NCBI GenBank assembly: GCA_036867785.1
Contig: CP145410.1
Coordinates: 806,001-870,000, forward strand
Direction of reading: 5' to 3'
Source: Plasmodiophora brassicae
Taxonomy: Eukaryota
Length of the DNA: 64,000 bases
The position numbers were made by a program, and so were the translations under genes. Position 1 is the first letter of the stretch. Each line of letters begins with the position of its first letter. Positions 353-49,254 of the stretch are shown here, one piece after another. The notes beneath the pieces were generated by a model. It did not search any database. It saw only the letters and a list, made by a program, of their open reading frames with translations, and was not told the origin of the DNA.

Positions 353-2093
353 ATGCTGCGCACCGTGCTTGGTACGAGCGCCATCGCGGGTGGTATCGGC
401 ACCGGGTTGTTTGCACATTACTACGAGCACGACGTTTGCAGACCGCCCGATCTGTACTATCACAAGGCAGGTCCAACCCGCACACCGAATCTTCAGTGAT
501 TAGTAACACGCACGTCCCCACCTAAAGGACTCGCTGAACGTCAATCTCGTTCGGAAGTGCCCTTCGCTAACGAGCAAATACGAGCCGACATTCTGGATGT
601 TCGGGGCGCACCTTCAAACGAGTATATTCATGGCAGGCAGTATGCTCAGGCGTGGGTGCAGTGACATCCGTCTCTTTCAGTCCTGGGGGCGTTCTTTCGC
701 GCACGGCCGGCCGTGAATCTCCAGCGCGACATTGTCGAGTGCCGCGACGGCGGTCATCTGTCGCTGACCTGGGAGGCGGACTCATATATGGCGTCGAGGG
801 ACGACACGCCGATCTTGCTCATTCTTCCCGGTCTGACGGGGTCGTCACGGTCGAAGTACATTTGCCAGCTTATGAAAGATGCTTCCAAGCAGGACCTGCG
901 TCCCGTCGTCCTTGGGTACCGCGGCTTCGACGTGAATCTGAGGGTAGGCGCAAGCTGTACGCCCGCCCCTCATGTGGTACCACTACTGAACCGTTGGTAC
1001 AGACACCAATGGTCACGACCTGCGCAACCGTTGGCGATGTCGAAGACTCGCTGATGTTTCTTCGTAAGAAGCACCCAGACGCACCGATCTATGCGATAGG
1101 CTTTTCTATGGGTGCTAATATGCTAGTCAAGTAACGGTTCGGCGCCGGAATCTACGTTCGGTTTGGTCACACGTGATACGCCAGGTATCTCGGCAGCTCG
1201 CACCGAGAGGGACGACCTCAGATCGTTTCTGGCGCTGTGGCGGTGTCGAATCCGTTCGACTTCGTCAAGCTATCCATCAAGTACCGCCCGAAAGTGTCAT
1301 TAGCAACCATTCAGCTTGGCTTACGGGTGTTGATTGCAGGCTGAGGGAATTCTCCAATGAGTGGCTCTATAGCAGACCTCTGTGCATGCGCGTGAAGTGG
1401 TTCATCAATCAGCACCAAGAGTAAGCGACTTCTTGGTGGGTAGCTGAGCTTCGTTGACTTTAGGTTGTACAGGAATGCCCAAATCCTTGCTGAGCGTGTT
1501 CACCCAACAGCCTTTGCGGTATCCGAGTACGCCTGAATGCGAAACGGTTACGTGCTGAACAGAACAAGTCAGGCAGCGACAATATATGAGCTTGACGATC
1601 GGCTGTCGAGGCATCTGTACGGGATAGCAACTGTCGAAGAGTACTACATGCTGTCGTCAGTATGCGTCGTCCTGATGACCGCATTTCATTGCAAATGACT
1701 GATCGCGACCGTATCCAGAGCCTTCACTTTCTCGAGGATGTTGACTGTCCACTCCTGCTGCTGAACGCTCGCGACGATCCGTTTCTGGGAGGGTACTTGG
1801 GTTTGGTCGGATCATGCGACTGCCGCTTCGAGTGACTGGTTGCAGCGAAATACCTTACGAGATGTGTCAACGAAATCCAAATTTGATGCTAGCGGTAACT
1901 GAACGCGGTGGCCATGTTGCATGGACCACGGGCGTCTTACCGCGCTCGTGGATGCTGGAGACCACCCTGCAATGTCGGTCCTGGCATTCCGCCGAACTGA
2001 AAACGTCTGACAGATGGTATAGACCTCAGTGCACTTCGATGCTTGCACATGGTTGACCGAAGGCACGACGAGCAGGAAGCTCGCGGCCATTAA
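353..2093 (+). CDS. ABHD1/2/3 (YheT-like) alpha/beta-hydrolase, multi-exon
   Basis: Spliced reading: MLRTVLGTSAIAGG...CPSLTSKYEPTFWMFGAHLQT...DGGHLSLTW...LILPGLTGSS...IYAIGFSMGANML (GxSxG nucleophile), LNARDDPF (acid), TERGGHVAW (His); stop TAA 2091-2093. Confidence 0.85.
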
Positions 2094-2116
2094 ATTTTTA
2101 ATATCTCGATACGATT

Positions 2117-2966
2117 AATTAGAGCACGCTCCATATATGCGCCCGTACGGCATCCGTACGGTGTCTATGATCAGTACATTATGAGGTTGCATTGACGTGT
2201 TGCCCATGATGTGCTCCGGTAGGGCACATCGTCAGGCGTGTTCTAGTTGGTTATGGGTACAGCTCCTCGGCCATGGATTGCACAGTATGATTGGGCGGAA
2301 GAGCGTGGCCAGATCCAGACGCGAGCCATCTGCCCGGTGCCCCCCATCGCGGCGCTACATACATGCAACTCCGAGGCTTCTCATTGTCGCCCTCGATCAG
2401 CACACCACATCGCCGGGTGAAGATGCCCGTGAGCACGCGCTCGCTGTCGCACATGGACATTGCCGGTGCGTCTGCCCGAGCGGCGAATGTCTTGCGCAAC
2501 ATCCTGCGTGACCGGTCGCTCATGAGGCACCTGAGCGAAGAAGATCTGCGTGACCGCGCCATCGCCGCTGCCAAGGATGTCCTGCAGCAGCGGCTCGCGT
2601 CTGGATCTGGCCACGCTCTTCCGCCCAACCATACTGTGCAATCCATGGCCGAGGAGCTGTACCACATTACGACCGAGAGTATGTCGGTCGATACAACGGA
2701 CTCGCCGTCGTCGTATCGCTCGACGCCATCGTCGACGCCACCGCCGCCGCCGTCGTATCCGTCGACGCCATCTTCGACACCATCCCCACCACCACCGGCT
2801 GAATAAACCCGCACACACAAACTAGAACACGCCTGAAGATGTGCCCTACCGGAGCACATCATGGGCAACACGTCAATGCAACCTCATAATGTACTGATCA
2901 TAGACACCGTACGGATGCCGTACGCCGAACAGGCGGCATGGCGCATATATGGAGCGTGCTCTAATT
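2117..2966. mobile_element. Non-autonomous fold-back/MITE-like element with long terminal inverted repeats
   Basis: 2117-2143 pairs with 2940-2966, 2144-2248 with 2820-2924 (1 mismatch) and 2256-2327 with 2592-2663 (1 mismatch); CGATT direct repeat at 2112-2116 and 2967-2971; no transposase motif seen. Confidence 0.65.
2363..2806 (+). CDS. Orphan ORF inside the fold-back element, with Pro/Ser/Thr-rich tail
   Basis: Open frame M(QLRG...)MPVSTRSLSH...PSSTPPPPP; AATAAA overlaps the end of the ORF; start could be 2363 or 2423. Confidence 0.45.
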   Translation: MQLRGFSLSPSISTPHRRVKMPVSTRSLSHMDIAGASARAANVLRNILRDRSLMRHLSEEDLRDRAIAAAKDVLQQRLASGSGHALPPNHTVQSMAEELYHITTESMSVDTTDSPSSYRSTPSSTPPPPPSYPSTPSSTPSPPPPAE

Positions 2967-3304
2967 CGATTGATGAGTGGGGACGTGTCTGTTTCATGTG
3001 CCGGATCGTTGCCGCCGGGTATCGATCCAGATATCTGCTAAACAGAATCGCTCCTGAAATTGTACGTTCGTTGGGGGGTATCCGGCGTCGCCGTGTCGAG
3101 GAGGTTGTACCAGTGTGGTGTCTTAAGGCGGTGTTCAACGCGCGCGCGTTATTGCACAGCCCGGCAACGCCAGGAATCTTGCAGGAGTCACGATCTCGAA
3201 CCTCGAGCGACGCGTGTGCCCCTGTGCGCGTGTCTGATAGGTGCCTAGCGATTCCCGCTGTCCACATCGATCGAAGGCGAGAACGAAGAGGACACCCGAA
3301 CACC

Positions 3305-4818
3305 ATGTTGTCGATGCTGGGATCGGTCATCAACAGCGGCACAGGGAACGATGCGGGTGAGTTCTCTCCCGAAACCAACGTCGCCGAGATCATACCAGGT
3401 GCGCTGCTCGCATAGCGAGCCAGGCGACGGCCACATGCTGAATCTCATCCGTTGTAGGGCGGCTCGTGTTCATGTGCTGCCCGGGGACCTCAGGGCCGCC
3501 ACCGGCACACTCCAAGAATGCTATTCTGTTCACGGTCGACCGCGTCCTGAACTACGAGCCGTTCTTCGCCGACTTCGGTCCCCTGAATCTTGGCCAGCTC
3601 TACAGGTTCTGCCAGATCGTCGAGTCCAAGCTCCAGCAGGCCAGCAACGTCAACCGGAAGGTGATCATGTACACGGCCAGGGGGCCGCAGAAGAAGGCCA
3701 ACGCCGGGTACTTGGTTTGCGCCTACCAGGTCCTGATCCTGAAACGAACGCCCGAGGAGGCATGGGCCCGGATCGCACACATCAGCCCTGGGTTCATTCC
3801 GTTCCGGGACGCGTCCATGCAGGCCTGCCTGTATAAGTTGACGATTCTGCACTGCCTGCAGGCGCTCGCCGCCGCCGTTCGCCTAAAGTTCTTCAACGTC
3901 GACACGTTCGATGTGTCCCAATACGAATTCTACGAGCGCATCGAGAACGGCGATCTGAACGTCATCGTGCCGAAGAAGTTCGTGCACTTCAGCGGGCCGT
4001 CGAACACGAACCGCGACGCCGACGGGTACCCTGCGAAGACCCCCAACGACTACATAGACACGTTCAAGAAGCTAGGGGTCACTGACATCATACGGCTGAA
4101 CAAGAAATGCTACGACAAGAACAAATTCACGAAGCATGGTTGGTCGACGGGTTGTCCGGTTGCGGTGGGAGCAGGGCACTGATCCCTGGTATGCGACAGG
4201 GTTTCAGCACCACGAAATGTACTTCATCGACGGGACAACGCCAAGCCTGGCGCTGCTCGAGAGGTTCATGAACGTGTGCGAGCACGCAAAGGGCATGGTG
4301 GCCGTGCACTGCAAGGCCGGCCTGGGAAGAACGGGAACCTGCGTCGGGTGCTACCTGATGAAGTTCTACCGGATGACAGCCGCAGAGGTGATTGCATGGC
4401 TACGAATTTGCCGACCGGGGAGTGTCCTTGGACCCCAACAGCAATTCCTGGAAGACATGCAGGCACTCATGTGGCGAGAGAACGACAAGCTGCGAAAGAC
4501 ATCGCAGGCGGCGGCCGAGAAGAAGACGGCGATCCCATACGCTATCGAGAAACAGCTTGCCAATGTAAGCCAGGCTCTGGGCCGTGAGTCGGCCACAACT
4601 GATGCGTCACCTGGCAGGTGTCCTTCGCCGAAGAGATCGCTACGTCCGGGTCTGCCAGCAGGAAAGGCGACGAAGTCGTGATCGAGAGCCAGGGCAACAA
4701 GCTGATCCACCAGAAGTTCGACGCGCAGCACCGGAAGTCGGTCACCGAGAAAGACATCGATATGGACAGCGAGATCTCGTTTGAGAATCTGCCACGAGCG
4801 CTGTCCCACTCACGGTGA
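3305..4818 (+). CDS. CDC14: Cdc14 dual-specificity phosphatase
   Basis: [53 protein letters not shown]; three introns inferred; an unspliced last intron would give a stop at 4681. Confidence 0.95.
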
Positions 4819-4965
4819 TGGCCCCATTCGCCCCCGGGAGCGCACGATGCGATCTGAACGCCTGGAAATCCCTCTAGCAGACATACACGCATCACTTTCG
4901 ATAGCCACGCTCCCCACCGCTATATTGTCAAACAGCGTCGCCGGAAATCGAATAGCACAGCGTCG

Positions 4966-6759
4966 TCATGAGGACTTTGTCGGAGCGAAACGGGTAAACC
5001 CCTCCGCCCTGAAGTCAACAGCATGAACGCGTAGAGCATGTTCGTATGCGGCTGGCAGGTGATCCAGAATCCCGGGTAGGCAGATGAGGGCGGCGCGCAA
5101 CGTCATCCGCAGGAATGATTCCCCATGCAGCGGGCTGGTCGCCAGTTTGATGGCCCCGAATATGAACGCGTGCCTATCCTCGTTTTCGCGACAGTCCTGG
5201 ATATCCTCCGGATCGGCGACAATACGATTGAACGAGGTGATGAAGCGCTCGCTGATATGGTGCTTGAAACCGAGCCCGCACGGCACCTTCGGGACAAGGT
5301 CCTGTGGTCGCCTGAACCTTAGTTTTGGTCGACAGATCGACGACTCGGTCCAACGTACGTTACCGAACACAAACCGCAGAGCAATCAACGGGTCCCCGTA
5401 CACCTGCTCGAAACGGGCCCGGTAGGCCGAGTTACCCGTGCGCGGTTGCCCAAACGTGAAGATGCCTTTGATGCGACGTTGAAGGTCAGGGTAACGGGTA
5501 GCTGTCTGTGCGAACACGGATGCCAGCGCGCCTCCAGAGCTGTGCCCAGTCAGGAAGATGCTTTTAGACGCGTTCCCAGGGCCATTAACAATAGAGACGA
5601 TCTGGTCAAACAGGCAGTTTTCACGCGGTTCAAACAAGGCGTTGTAGAATTCAGCGTGTACGCCTCCAATGTCAGAGAAAGTGTTCATGACCGAGCATGC
5701 GTCGGATCTCCAGCTCACAAGGTCGAGCGCGTCGGCCCCGACGAACGCAATCATAATGGAGTTGCTGTTGCTGCAGACATAACCGGCAACATCTGGCCGG
5801 AACTTCAGCGTCCCCAGCTGTTCCTCATCGTAGTGGGCGTCGGTGCCAGCGTACCGGTTGCACGCGAACCCATCAAAGCGTAAACCCCACCGGGATGCGA
5901 TAACGTCTTTGATGACTAGTGGATGCTCGTATGCCAGCTTGGCAAACTGGCTCATGAAGTGCGCGTTGAATGGGTGATCAATCGGTGACGATCCCGACTC
6001 ACGATCCATAATAATCGGAAAGCGCGGCGACTGGATATCATACTACGGGACGATTGCCCATCAGCACCCATGCATGACCCCAAACAGCAGATATATTGCA
6101 TACCTCTTTCGGGACGTCAAACTCGGGCGCGATAACGTTCACGATTGAGTAGACACATGAGACGTCGGAGTCAGTTGTGTAGAAACCACTGAACATCTTG
6201 GACAGAAGCCATTCAATGCGCCTCATCAGTCCTACTTGCTATTGGTGACACTAGGTAACACCAATCCACGTGGTAGTACCTTTGACGACGATGGCAATGC
6301 CCAGCTTCTGGCAAACCGTAAGGACAACATTGTAGATTGTGACCTGGTACACGAACGCGAGCGAAATATTATATGCACTTATAATTCGGGACCACACCAG
6401 CTTGACGTCTTCGTTGTAGTCGGCCTCGATCAACTCGAGGCAACCATTTACCAGCGTACGTAACCATCCATGAGACGCAAGTATGTATTCGTCTGGCGAG
6501 AAATGCCATCAAACATCCGGTGCGACCGAACCGTATGCCACCCCTACCGCTCTCATCCCAGGCAAAGCGGAACGGCAAGCACACAAGTTCGACGACAGCA
6601 AGGTATGGCCAGAGCAGCACCTACGGTCTCCCCACGTCAACATACACAAGCACATTTCCCCACGCTGAGCGAACGCACCCTGACGACGACCTTGAGGACA
6701 TTCGGCCACACCTCTTCCTCAGCATACGCCTGGCACTGCTGCTCACCAGCGTGGGACAT
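4966..6759 (-). CDS. Class 3 (fungal/plant-type) triacylglycerol lipase with N-terminal hydrophobic region
   Basis: FLTGHSSGGALA, GGVHAEFY, FTFGQPRTGN, DLVPKVP, DHLPAAY; upstream exons inferred and start uncertain. Confidence 0.8.
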
Positions 6760-7082
6760 GCTAGACCGATTTCGAGGGCAGCGTTTTATACCGGCTCTGC
6801 CGTTTCGAAGGTGTTGCAAACGCGATCGAAAGCTATAAATCGCGCGGAAGCGGGTCGAGACGCCGACGCGGGCAGTCAAACCCAACGACGCCGGCTTTCT
6901 TGGGCCTACGGCAATGTTTTGTGGGACCGCCGGTTTCAATTTTCATCCCCAAAAACCGGCCGCTCCGCCTCGCGACTCTTCGTGAGCGTGTTCCACACAG
7001 CAGTTGCTCCGGCGCGGTAACGTCGGCCGAAACAGCCGGACCGGCGTTATTAATAGTCTGGTTCGGTTCATGCACGAAGCAG

Positions 7083-7640
7083 ATGCAGAGCTGGCTTGCG
7101 CTGTGTACGACGGTTCTGCTGGCATGGTCGTGCTCCGGCGCTTGTAATTGCACGCTGGATGTCGCTCAAGTGTGCGGGTCCGACGGGGTCACGTACAGGA
7201 ACAGCTGCCTGGCGCTGTGTTCCGGAGCGGCTGTGGCGAAAGCGGGACCCTGTTCGTGCACTTGCCAACCATCGTCGCCCTCCGACACAGTCTGCGGTAC
7301 GGACGGTCGTGCACACAAGAGCGCCTGTGAGGCGGAATGCAACTCTGTCAAGGTTGCATATACGGGCTCTTGCATCCAGCCGTGCTCGTCATCGGACGCG
7401 GCGACGACATCGATGCCGGTATGTGGAAACGACGGACAGACGTACCCGAACCCATGCGAAGCGCGCAACAAAGGCATCCTCATCAGCAGCCAAGGTGCAT
7501 GCAGCGGCCAGCCCGTTAAATGCGACTGCCCCGACCAAGTCGCTCCTGTATGTGCCTCGGATGGCAGCACGTATTCCAGCAGCTGCAAAGCGAAGTGTAC
7601 CGGCGTGTCCATTGTACACCTGGGCGCTTGTACGAACTAA
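7083..7640 (+). CDS. Secreted four-domain Kazal-type serine protease inhibitor
   Basis: Signal peptide MQSWLALCTTVLLAWSCSG; four repeats VCGSDGVTY / VCGTDGRAH / VCGNDGQTY / VCASDGSTY. Confidence 0.92.
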   Translation: MQSWLALCTTVLLAWSCSGACNCTLDVAQVCGSDGVTYRNSCLALCSGAAVAKAGPCSCTCQPSSPSDTVCGTDGRAHKSACEAECNSVKVAYTGSCIQPCSSSDAATTSMPVCGNDGQTYPNPCEARNKGILISSQGACSGQPVKCDCPDQVAPVCASDGSTYSSSCKAKCTGVSIVHLGACTN

Positions 7641-47255: not shown

Positions 47256-49254
47256 ATGGCTCTGGCGCCGTTTGCCATGACGGTCCTGTACGGGTCGCAG
47301 TCCGGCTGCGCGCAGGACGTCGCCGAACGAATTGCCCGGCATGCTCGACTCTGGCAGGTCCCGGTCACCCTGTCGTGCATGGATGACTTCGGCATGGTAC
47401 GCATTGTGGACCTTCGCCTCTAATGCGATTGCAATCGCGTGCTGATTGCGGTGTTGCTCCAGGAAAGGCTAGAGAAGATCATGGCTGATCACTACCACGT
47501 CTTCGTAGCATCGACCACAGGACAGGGTGTTGCTCCTGATAATATGAGTCGGCTGTGGCGGTCGTTGCTGAGCAAACGCCTTCCTAGCAACCATCTAGAG
47601 CATATGCGATTCGCTGTGTTCGGGTTGGGAGATTCGTCCTACCCGATTTATAACGCAGTTGCGAGGCGTTTATTCCAGCGTCTGCTCGACCTGGGCGCTG
47701 TTGCGTTCTATCCCAGAGGACTCGGTGACGACCAGCACGACCTGGGCTATGATGGCGATTTCATGCCCTGGATGGATGGCATGTGGCGTAGGCTTCGCGA
47801 GCTTCATCCCTCACTGGACGCCATGCGATTGGATGAACTTGCACCGAGGTACAAGGTCTCTTTGGTGGATGGTGTCCCTGACGACCATGTACCTCTGGGG
47901 TCATTTGGCCAGGGAGTTGGTCGGTATATACCCCTTCCGGCGCCTGTTCTCGATAGTCGCCGGATCACGCCTGAAGATCATTTCCAAGACGTCCGGATCG
48001 TGGAGCTCTCAGCCCGACATGTACGATACACTCCCGGTGACATTGTAACTATTGTTGTATGGTGCAAAGTTTGCTGGTTCCTAAACTCATTACTGATCAG
48101 TTGATCATCCATCCAAGGAATTCAGTGGAAGCGGCAAGACAATTCATTGTTGACAGGATTCGCATGGATCCGCTCACTGTTGTCGTTATTGAGTGCAAGG
48201 ATGATGACGGCAAACTCCCAACTGGTTGCAAGGTGACGATCCTCGATCTGTTTGTCCGGTTCCTGGACATATTCGGCACTCCTCGGCGCCACTTCTTTGA
48301 GGTTTGCCTCTGAGGTATTGCCTTGCCCCATCGTCGGGCTGACTTTGCTGTTCAGTTCTTAGCGCAATTTGCAACCGACGATGTGGAGAAAGAACGTCTA
48401 CTGGAACTGTCATCACCTGAGGGCCAGGCCGACCTTCTTGCTTATAACTTCAGGGAACGCAGAACATACGCCGAGGTCTTGAACGACTTCCCTTCTGCTC
48501 AGGTCCCGCTTGCACGACTGTTAGAAGAGGTTCCACGTCTGGCTCCCCGGCAATTCTCCATCGCGTCATCTCCTCGTGCTCATCCGGATCGTATCCAAAT
48601 ATTAGCGGCTATCGTGGAGTTCCAGACGCCTTATAAGCGACGTCGTGTGGGATTGTGCTCACATTTCCTGAGAACGCTGAAGGTTGGCGACTCTGTTGAC
48701 GTCTGGTCGCGATCTGGATGTTTATCTATTCCACCGTCTCCCGTTCCGATGATCATGGTCGGTCCGGGCACTGGGATTGCTCCATTTCGTTCTATGTGCA
48801 ATGAACTGTCATTCCTGCACGACCGGGGGCCATCAGAAATCCGGGTCTACTTCGGCTGTCGATACAAGGCCAACGATTTCTACTTCGAATTTGAGTGGGA
48901 CCAGCTGCTCAGCCGTGGCACGATCACCGCGTTTGTGCCCGCTTTCTCAAGAGATCAACCGAACAAGGTGTATGTTCAGGATCAGCTGCGAGAGCAAGGC
49001 GCCGACGTTTGGCGAATCCTGAGTGGCGGCGGCGTGTTCTATTTGGCGGGGTACGTCTCGTAAGGTTCTGGCTCTGCGTCTCCCGTTGCTGAGTATGGCT
49101 TGCTTTTGACAGGTCGTCGAACAGTATGCCCAAGCAAGTGCAAGATGCTATAATCGATATCTGTATTGAGTACGGCCACATGACGGATGATGATGCCCGA
49201 ACATTCGTGAGGCAATTGCAGCGTCGCGGCCAGTATGTTATTGAAACATGGTAG
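47256..49254 (+). CDS. NDOR1: NADPH-dependent diflavin oxidoreductase 1 (Tah18)
   Basis: VLYGSQSGCAQDVAE, STTGQG, FGLGDSSY, DHFQDVR, PRQFSIASS, MVGPGTGIAPFR, C-terminal ETW. Confidence 0.92.

Follow-up and report, generated by a model that had tools for sequence, protein, structure and literature searches.

A transposon-built fold-back around an orphan open reading frame in Plasmodiophora brassicae that may have moved as one composite

Near the start of a 64,000-nt stretch of the Plasmodiophora brassicae genome (assembly GCA_036867785.1, contig CP145410.1, positions 806,001 to 870,000 of the forward strand), an 850-bp fold-back occupies positions 2117-2966 and encloses a small orphan open reading frame (ORF). 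The whole stretch is referred to as the window, and all positions are counted from its first letter. The fold-back lies between two plus-strand genes, one encoding an alpha/beta-hydrolase upstream and one a Cdc14-type phosphatase downstream. The hydrolase gene ends with a TAA stop codon at 2091-2093, 23 nt before the fold-back. On either side the fold-back is directly adjoined by the sequence CGATT, read at 2112-2116 (19 nt past the hydrolase stop codon) and, in identical form, at 2967-2971. This direct repeat is a candidate target-site duplication.

The arms of the fold-back are made up of three inverted pairs. The outermost pair, I3 (2117-2143/2940-2966), is complementary at 27 of 27 positions. 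It is followed by the outer pair I1 (2144-2248/2820-2924) with one mismatch at 2231/2837; I1 can be extended to 2251/2817 at the cost of a second mismatch. The inner pair I2 (2256-2327/2592-2663) comprises 72 bp with one mismatch at 2290/2629. Coordinates, mismatches and a 15-nt insertion in the right arm were thus confirmed as given in the original prediction, which had been made from the sequence alone. Read from left to right, the structure starts with a miniature inverted-repeat transposable element (MITE)-like unit of 132 bp on the plus strand (2117-2248), which runs from an A end (2117-2129) to a B end (2236-2248) and is devoid of the 15-nt segment of its right counterpart. According to the arm alignment, a 7-nt spacer (2249-2255) then stands opposite 156 nt of the right arm. 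The left copy of the inner repeat, I2L (2256-2327, minus strand, mismatch at 2290), is an antisense copy of approximately codons 57-80 of the ORF, and it leads into a unique centre, or loop, of 264 nt (2328-2591, plus strand) that holds the 5' part of the ORF. The ORF itself extends on the plus strand from 2363 to 2806 (147 aa) or from 2423 to 2806 (127 aa) and contains, in frame, the parent copy of the inner repeat, I2R (2592-2663, plus strand). The next 156 nt (2664-2819, plus strand) are confined to the right arm in the alignment and comprise the tail end of the ORF with its stop codon and a further 13 nt. The right MITE-like unit (2820-2966, minus strand, 147 bp) closes the structure with its B end at 2820-2832, the 15-nt segment at 2925-2939 and its A end at 2954-2966.

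The arms stand alone in the window. The 27-mer at the ends occurs twice, compared to an expectation of 0.00 in 100 shuffles; no other repeats of 30 nt or longer were detected anywhere in the window besides those of the fold-back, and a sensitive BLASTN search of the element against the window returned only its own arms. Folding, which had been proposed as a check, gave -578.5 kcal/mol for an 886-nt stretch spanning the element, compared to -317.2 +/- 6.3 kcal/mol for 20 shuffled sequences (z = -41.6).

Words sampled from 1900-3200 were searched in public sequencing runs, and at least half of them were present in 20 of the 24 listed runs, with 9 studies represented. Four runs were compared over 400-5000: X8, a plant-metagenome DNA run, and X14, X16 and X18, which were taken as RNA runs from their spliced GT..AG joints, the run listing naming no source of RNA. 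Contigs of X8 matched 400-2173, 2201-2285, 2256-2327 (the complete I2L), 2298-2621, 2634-2861, 2866-2924 and 2895-5000 with 0 differing letters. Every junction between flank and arm, arm and spacer, and arm and loop is therefore present in an independent field sample. The contig across the loop, 2298-2621, was also recovered from X14 and X16. All contigs were built from 31-letter words, which do not discriminate the orientation of the 264-nt centre, do not bridge arms of 72 nt or more and carry no strand; at this word level, the fold-back is not an assembly artefact.

The enclosed ORF is recorded in its shorter version (P0001, 127 aa from the ATG at 2423); the 147-aa version starts at the ATG at 2363. 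As predicted, it is an orphan that shares its own codons with the inner repeat, with I2R inside the ORF and I2L in antisense. Searches with the 127-aa protein returned no sequence but its own, both from 5.8 billion clustered proteins, to which length limits applied, and from 1.84 billion representatives without restriction on length; neither a Pfam family nor a look-alike in the ESM Atlas was found. The tail of the ORF is rich in Ser, Thr and Pro and displays 21-nt periodic repeats at 2703-2798. Between 2423 and 2662, the G+C content at the three codon positions is 0.69, 0.475 and 0.75, resembling that of the neighbouring genes, and the overlapping frames, including a longer antisense ORF, do not have this pattern. 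The ORF is covered by an intronless RNA contig, 2343-2837, in X18. This contig starts with a 23-nt loose end, which we take to be a sequencing-adapter tail, a weak hint that the RNA has its 5' end near 2343. We concluded that the ORF is a transcribed, species-specific gene that probably codes for a protein, which for now is a putative one predicted from the reading frame. Two further observations were made in this region. The antisense frame (2251-2883, minus strand, 206-210 codons) is longer than the recorded ORF, has no coding-like G+C periodicity and no Pfam match, and is probably a by-product of the high G+C content and the mirrored arms. In addition, approximately 35 nt at 2721-2755, within the GC-rich repeat of the tail that codes for Ser, Thr and Pro, are shared in all three RNA runs with another transcript that diverges both before 2721 and behind 2755; this transcript probably stems from an unrelated gene with a similar low-complexity repeat.

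Transcription enters the fold-back from the hydrolase gene. Over 463-2023 of this gene, ten very short GT..AG introns of 49-61 nt are spliced in contigs of the three RNA runs, and one further joint, 463/525, has AA..TA ends. Hydrolase contigs have by far the greatest word depth within 400-5000. The RNA contigs in which the last hydrolase intron is spliced extend to 2205 in X14 and to 2230 in X16 and X18, and thus at least 89 nt of the left unit are part of the 3' untranslated region (UTR) of the hydrolase mRNA. The stretches behind these contigs that RNA does not cover (2231-2297 in X16 and 2231-2342 in X18) were not taken as transcript ends. Further inside, an RNA path through 2298-2621 in X14 and X16 presupposes reads across both edges of the loop, connecting it to the final 30 nt of I2L on one side and to I2R on the other; a contig of X14 (2634-2867) passes out of the ORF tail and into the mirrored unit on the right. 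A joint of 2230 to 2837 on opposite strands, which appeared in X16 and X18, was rejected as a real RNA and is best read as a path of the assembler through the 87 nt common to the arms.

On the downstream side, the phosphatase gene encodes a dual-specificity phosphatase (DSPn 9.9e-44, DSPc 3.9e-13). RNA contigs of low depth from three studies start at 2917, 2923 and 2942, within the A-end portion of the right unit, and extend toward this gene. X14 and X18 both show splicing of a 59-nt GT..AG intron at 3397-3455. As a weak hint, the 5' UTR of the Cdc14 mRNA may be long, contain an intron and begin within the repeat unit or next to it.

Each of the outer arms proved to be more than a simple repeat. 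The 13-nt A and B ends of the unit are inverted repeats of each other at 11 of 13 positions, and exact matches to this end motif in the 64 kb are restricted to the four unit ends (0.30 matches expected at up to one mismatch). For each unit alone, a fold closed by a terminal stem of 14 bp is predicted, at -57.1 kcal/mol (z = -5.29) for the left one and, on the minus strand, at -63.7 kcal/mol (z = -5.21) for the right one. With a size of 132 or 147 bp, the units contain no unit-sized ORF, and ORFs that overlap the arms gave no Pfam match. No further copy was found in the window by motif, BLASTN and alignment searches. A 31-nt stretch of the unit matched 0 loci in a metagenome collection, from which this organism is evidently missing. 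One motif match with a single mismatch, at 49032-49044, was rejected as a unit, as its local alignment scores of 40-42 equal the background of the window (maximum 45).

Other copies became apparent from contig junctions in the metagenome and the three RNA runs. In X8, the B end is adjoined by three different sequences (loose ends behind 2251, before 2821 and before 2832) and the A end by one other sequence (behind 2966); yet another sequence adjoins the A end in RNA run X18 (behind 2964). One X8 contig of 1047 nt, X8-19, is alike over 2176-2251 save for 5 letters and then diverges. In X8, 8 of the 24 compared contigs are less than 99% alike. The depth of X8-19 (73.6) is similar to that of the flanking P. 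brassicae contigs (68.6-71), and its junction recurs in RNA run X14, which comes from a different study, indicating that this copy belongs to the same organism. Summed word depth in X8 amounts to 222-254 over the arms and 69-71 over the flanks, a roughly threefold difference that is not a copy number. Taken together, at least three further copies of the unit with other flanks occur in the genome, or at least five units including the two described here.

The other copies lose similarity at the same two ends (2966/2964 on one side and 2251/2821/2832 on the other), which defines each arm as a discrete unit. We concluded that each outer arm is a complete MITE-like unit and that the arms belong to a small dispersed family. 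This bears out the expectation that the arms are of transposon type and have copies elsewhere. The description of the arms as a terminal inverted repeat (TIR) of about 130 bp holds insofar as inverted arms are present; however, each arm is a unit with a 13-nt TIR of its own rather than a simple TIR. Also in line with the original prediction, no transposase is visible: no transposase domain was detected in the element or among the 36 long ORFs of the window, which are ordinary housekeeping genes. No description of MITE-type elements of P. brassicae was found in the genome and pangenome texts searched, and a literature search combining Plasmodiophora and miniature inverted-repeat elements returned, among the matches listed, only Brassica or general papers. 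An automatic annotation counts 812 TIR-type elements in P. brassicae and leaves them undescribed (PMC13547706, Table S5). The description of the arms as complete units with their own 13-nt ends and further copies is therefore new here.

The arrangement of the arms points to their origin. The left side, 2117-2327 (211 nt), reads as the reverse complement of 2592-2966 on the right (375 nt), with gaps of 15 and approximately 149 nt. Within these 375 nt, the last third of the ORF is followed by the ORF tail and the unit. The inner repeat and the unit keep a collinear order and the same orientation in both arms. Divergence between the arms is equally low, with 1 of 72 positions in I2 and 1 of 132 in the unit, i.e., two substitutions in 204 aligned nt; the nearest other copy of the unit differs at 5 of 76 positions. 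As the pairs are collinear and equally young, a single inverted duplication of 375 nt explains them better than three separate events. The inner 72-bp pair, which had been regarded as a second one, is indeed present, but together with the outer pair it forms one inverted duplication that was later shortened on the left. The right arm is regarded as the parent because I2R lies in frame in the ORF and because 9 nt of the 15-nt segment of the right unit (2925-2939) recur in another genomic copy (X8, loose end before 2159), so that this segment is ancestral and was lost from the left arm. The mismatch at 2629 in I2R affects a third codon position and is synonymous.

A course of events consistent with this anatomy would begin with one unit situated immediately behind a small orphan gene. 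An inverted copy of 375 nt, comprising the 3' third of the gene, its tail and the unit, would then have been placed on the opposite flank of the gene, by which both outer ends of the structure became the A end of the unit. Aberrant transposition or re-replication, as in the composite insertions formed by maize Ac/Ds, may have caused the inverted duplication; unequal arms fused off-centre would account for the 264-nt loop without an additional event. Subsequently, a transposase acting on the two A ends would have moved the composite as a whole, and the 850 bp would have integrated between the alpha/beta-hydrolase and Cdc14 phosphatase genes, 23 nt past the hydrolase stop codon, with duplication of CGATT. 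The left arm would afterwards have lost 15 nt and about 149 nt, and the two substitutions would have arisen. Directly observed were the anatomy, the ends of the unit, its further copies, the RNA coverage and the lack of a transposase; the order of these events is what we infer.

Our best reading, held with moderate confidence and no more, is that a composite fold-back formed by inverted duplication at a transposon end integrated whole with a 5-bp duplication. Both A ends border on a direct repeat of 5 bp without mismatch, for which we estimate a chance of about 1 in 1000 at fixed positions, and neither unit alone is bracketed by matching flanks; only the composite is. It is this perfect repeat set against two identical A ends that favours integration as one piece over a duplication in place. 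Of the two duplications that had been considered, an AATT duplication with AG...CT termini is unlikely, as another genomic copy carries AATT as part of its end (behind 2966); TA, TTAA or TWA target sites were dropped, as the two flanks are not direct repeats there. Several points weigh against integration as one piece. The case for mobility of the whole is a single 5-bp duplication at the one known instance of the composite, and for no other copy could both flanks be paired to give the usual duplication length of the family. An empty site with a single CGATT, i.e., a joint of 2116 to 2972, had been named as something to look for and was not found in the four runs, whose contigs may miss rare alleles. 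No variant contig of 2298-2621, as a second copy of the middle would give, occurred in these runs; if the element was made by re-replication of a donor locus, the ORF might be expected twice, and no further copy of it was seen there. An autonomous partner, likewise named for checking, is not visible among the 36 long ORFs of the 64-kb window. Finally, the 149-nt difference between the arms was read as a deletion, and the 7-nt spacer is too short to prove a deletion on the left as opposed to an insertion in the right arm.

The same negative results favour the main alternative, an inverted duplication in situ, which we consider possible but rather unlikely. In that case, the orphan gene and one unit would be native to the locus, and 375 nt would have been copied upstream by an error of replication or repair, through a template switch or fold-back priming; nothing would have moved, and the CGATT pair would be due to chance or a by-product of repair. 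The lack of both an empty site and a variant contig of the middle in the four runs, the occurrence of the locus in runs of 9 studies, and the collinearity and equally low divergence of the arms are all as expected from such an event. However, the duplication would have had to stop exactly at an A end beside 5 matching nt, to which the above estimate of about 1 in 1000 applies, and the left border that it would have produced is a terminus that other copies use as well. Integration of the composite as one piece thus remains the reading that we prefer. Of the proposal that the element is a cargo-carrying transposon, construction from transposon sequence and the perfect 5-bp flanking repeat were established; a second copy of the composite and an empty site in the four runs were not. 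We concluded that the structure is transposon-built, belongs to known kinds of elements (a MITE family and a fold-back or composite insertion), and may have moved as a cargo-carrying composite.

Compatible with either origin is the idea that the locus is a working source of hairpin RNA. P. brassicae has a described pathway for 21-nt small RNAs, comprising two Argonautes and a Drosha-like enzyme, PbDRL, and palindromic loci give microRNAs (miRNAs) according to the legend of Fig. 2G of the same report (PMC13547706). The published small RNAs comprise 234 miRNAs listed in a table and 78,890 small interfering RNAs (siRNAs) outside it; positions of the siRNA and PHAS loci refer to another assembly (PMC13547706). 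Judged from sequence complementarity, the unit in the 3' UTR of the hydrolase mRNA and the mirrored unit of the orphan RNA could possibly pair over approximately 130 nt, either within one RNA or between two. Double-stranded RNA (dsRNA) from I2 (72 bp) or from the units (about 130 bp) would then be cut by PbDRL to 21-nt siRNAs, with a damping effect on the orphan gene and on copies of the unit elsewhere. RNA contigs over 2023-2230, 2298-2621, 2343-2837 and 2634-2867, among them the path joining I2L, loop and I2R, argue for this reading, as does the extreme stability of the predicted stem. A precedent exists in maize, where inverted duplications from aberrant transposition that are read from a flanking promoter trigger siRNAs (10.1101/2020.01.07.897926). 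On the other hand, no contig represents one RNA with both complete arms, which strandless contigs from 31-letter words cannot bridge, and none of the published miRNAs inspected maps to the locus, the table holding the 234 miRNAs and not the 78,890 siRNAs. For this comparison, the 5' 8-mers of 238 of the 240 rows of Table S8 of PMC13547706 (all but 217 and 237) were compared by eye with all 8-mers of 2096-2990 on both strands, a procedure that may miss matches. An 8-nt 5' seed was in common for 14 rows, and none of these matches extended past 10 nt. Pb-miR193 has an internal 11-mer in common with the unit and is alike at 16 of 21 positions; about one such match is expected by chance. Rfam covariance models gave no match over 1900-3500 at E values up to 1. 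On balance, we regard a working hairpin-RNA locus as unlikely. More doubtful still is its most far-reaching form, which extends the analogy to a newborn hairpin-RNA gene in a Dicer-less rhizarian: here, aberrant transposition would have copied the end of a small gene in reverse together with the mini-transposon beside it, and transcription, aided by the strong expression of the hydrolase gene immediately upstream, would yield dsRNA of 72-130 bp; the 21-nt siRNAs to which PbDRL would convert it would adjust the activity of the orphan gene and keep the remaining family silent.

Two remaining explanations fare considerably worse. Each arm is a complete unit with both ends present, as it would be if two units had inserted independently on either side of the gene and a separate 72-bp inverted duplication had taken place. 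We consider this very improbable, since three events would be needed for pairs that are collinear, adjacent and equally young (1/132 and 1/72), neither unit has a flanking duplication of its own, and the two units resemble each other much more than they resemble the most similar copy elsewhere (5/76). Long inverted repeats are prone to mis-assembly, but an artefact of this kind is next to inconceivable here, as all junction words were recovered with 0 differing letters from the independent field DNA sample as well as from three RNA runs, and 20 of the 24 listed runs carry at least half of the sampled words; the original prediction of a genuine structure stands in this respect.

Outside the fold-back, an open frame on the plus strand at 6765-7637 encodes three Kazal-type serine-protease-inhibitor domains (Kazal_2 1.3e-23). 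Its product is a candidate secreted inhibitor in this plant pathogen.

Transposons of P. brassicae have so far only been counted by automatic pipelines. The locus provides a clean, datable example of a small DNA-transposon family reshaping a gene-dense region, in which the unit family contributes 3' UTR sequence to a hydrolase gene with strong expression and surrounds an orphan gene. Should small RNAs arise here, the fold-back would be a natural hairpin substrate for the Dicer-less RNA interference pathway reported in 2026 and a test case for the birth of small-RNA genes in Rhizaria; the self-silencing of transposons through composite insertions, for which maize is the documented case so far, would then also occur in a different eukaryotic supergroup. 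If no small RNAs arise, the locus represents an ordinary transposon-associated inverted duplication.

With regard to known systems, the unit is like a MITE in being small (132-147 bp, with MITEs ranging up to about 800 bp), non-coding, dispersed and self-folding with terminal inverted repeats, and the composite resembles Pack-type TIR elements in that TIR-type ends surround non-transposon DNA. In contrast to both, the family is very small (at least five units), the unit is not AT-rich, and the enclosed ORF has no parent gene or relative in the protein sets searched. The Foldback (FB) transposons of Drosophila are multi-copy elements with arms of tandem subrepeats and 9-bp duplications. Like FB and foldback-like elements, the structure has long inverted arms and a middle of unrelated DNA, which is variable in those elements, and it shares their usual lack of a transposase gene. 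It departs from FB in that each arm is a single unit bounded by ends of its own, the flanking repeat measures 5 bp, and repetition is limited to the arms and does not extend to the composite; direct repeats in the manner of FB subrepeats were not found inside the arms, the only direct repeats being those of the ORF tail at 2703-2798.

A different parallel is offered by the inverted-duplication model, according to which young miRNA or hairpin-siRNA genes arise by inverted duplication of their target gene (updated version of the model in PMC3237417). As in such young genes, a near-perfect inverted part of a gene lies beside the same gene, the arms are in part derived from a transposon, and the host has a working 21-nt small-RNA pathway. 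Unlike at young miRNA genes and at the palindromic miRNA region of P. brassicae, 0 of the 238 inspected miRNA rows map to the locus. The closest counterparts are the composite insertions of maize. There, alternative transposition of Ac/Ds followed by re-replication and fusion of aborted forks generates inverted duplications of a transposon end together with flanking donor DNA, bordered by target-site duplications (10.1101/2020.01.07.897926). The maize composites were observed as they arose, are kilobases long with hAT ends and 8-bp duplications, and have demonstrated siRNAs, whereas the fold-back is one 850-bp locus with a reconstructed history, a 5-bp repeat, an unclassified unit and no visible donor copy. 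Both nevertheless combine an inverted transposon end with donor-flank DNA in unequal arms fused off-centre, and in both a target-site duplication (here the candidate CGATT) surrounds the whole, no transposase is encoded inside, and transcription enters from a flanking gene.

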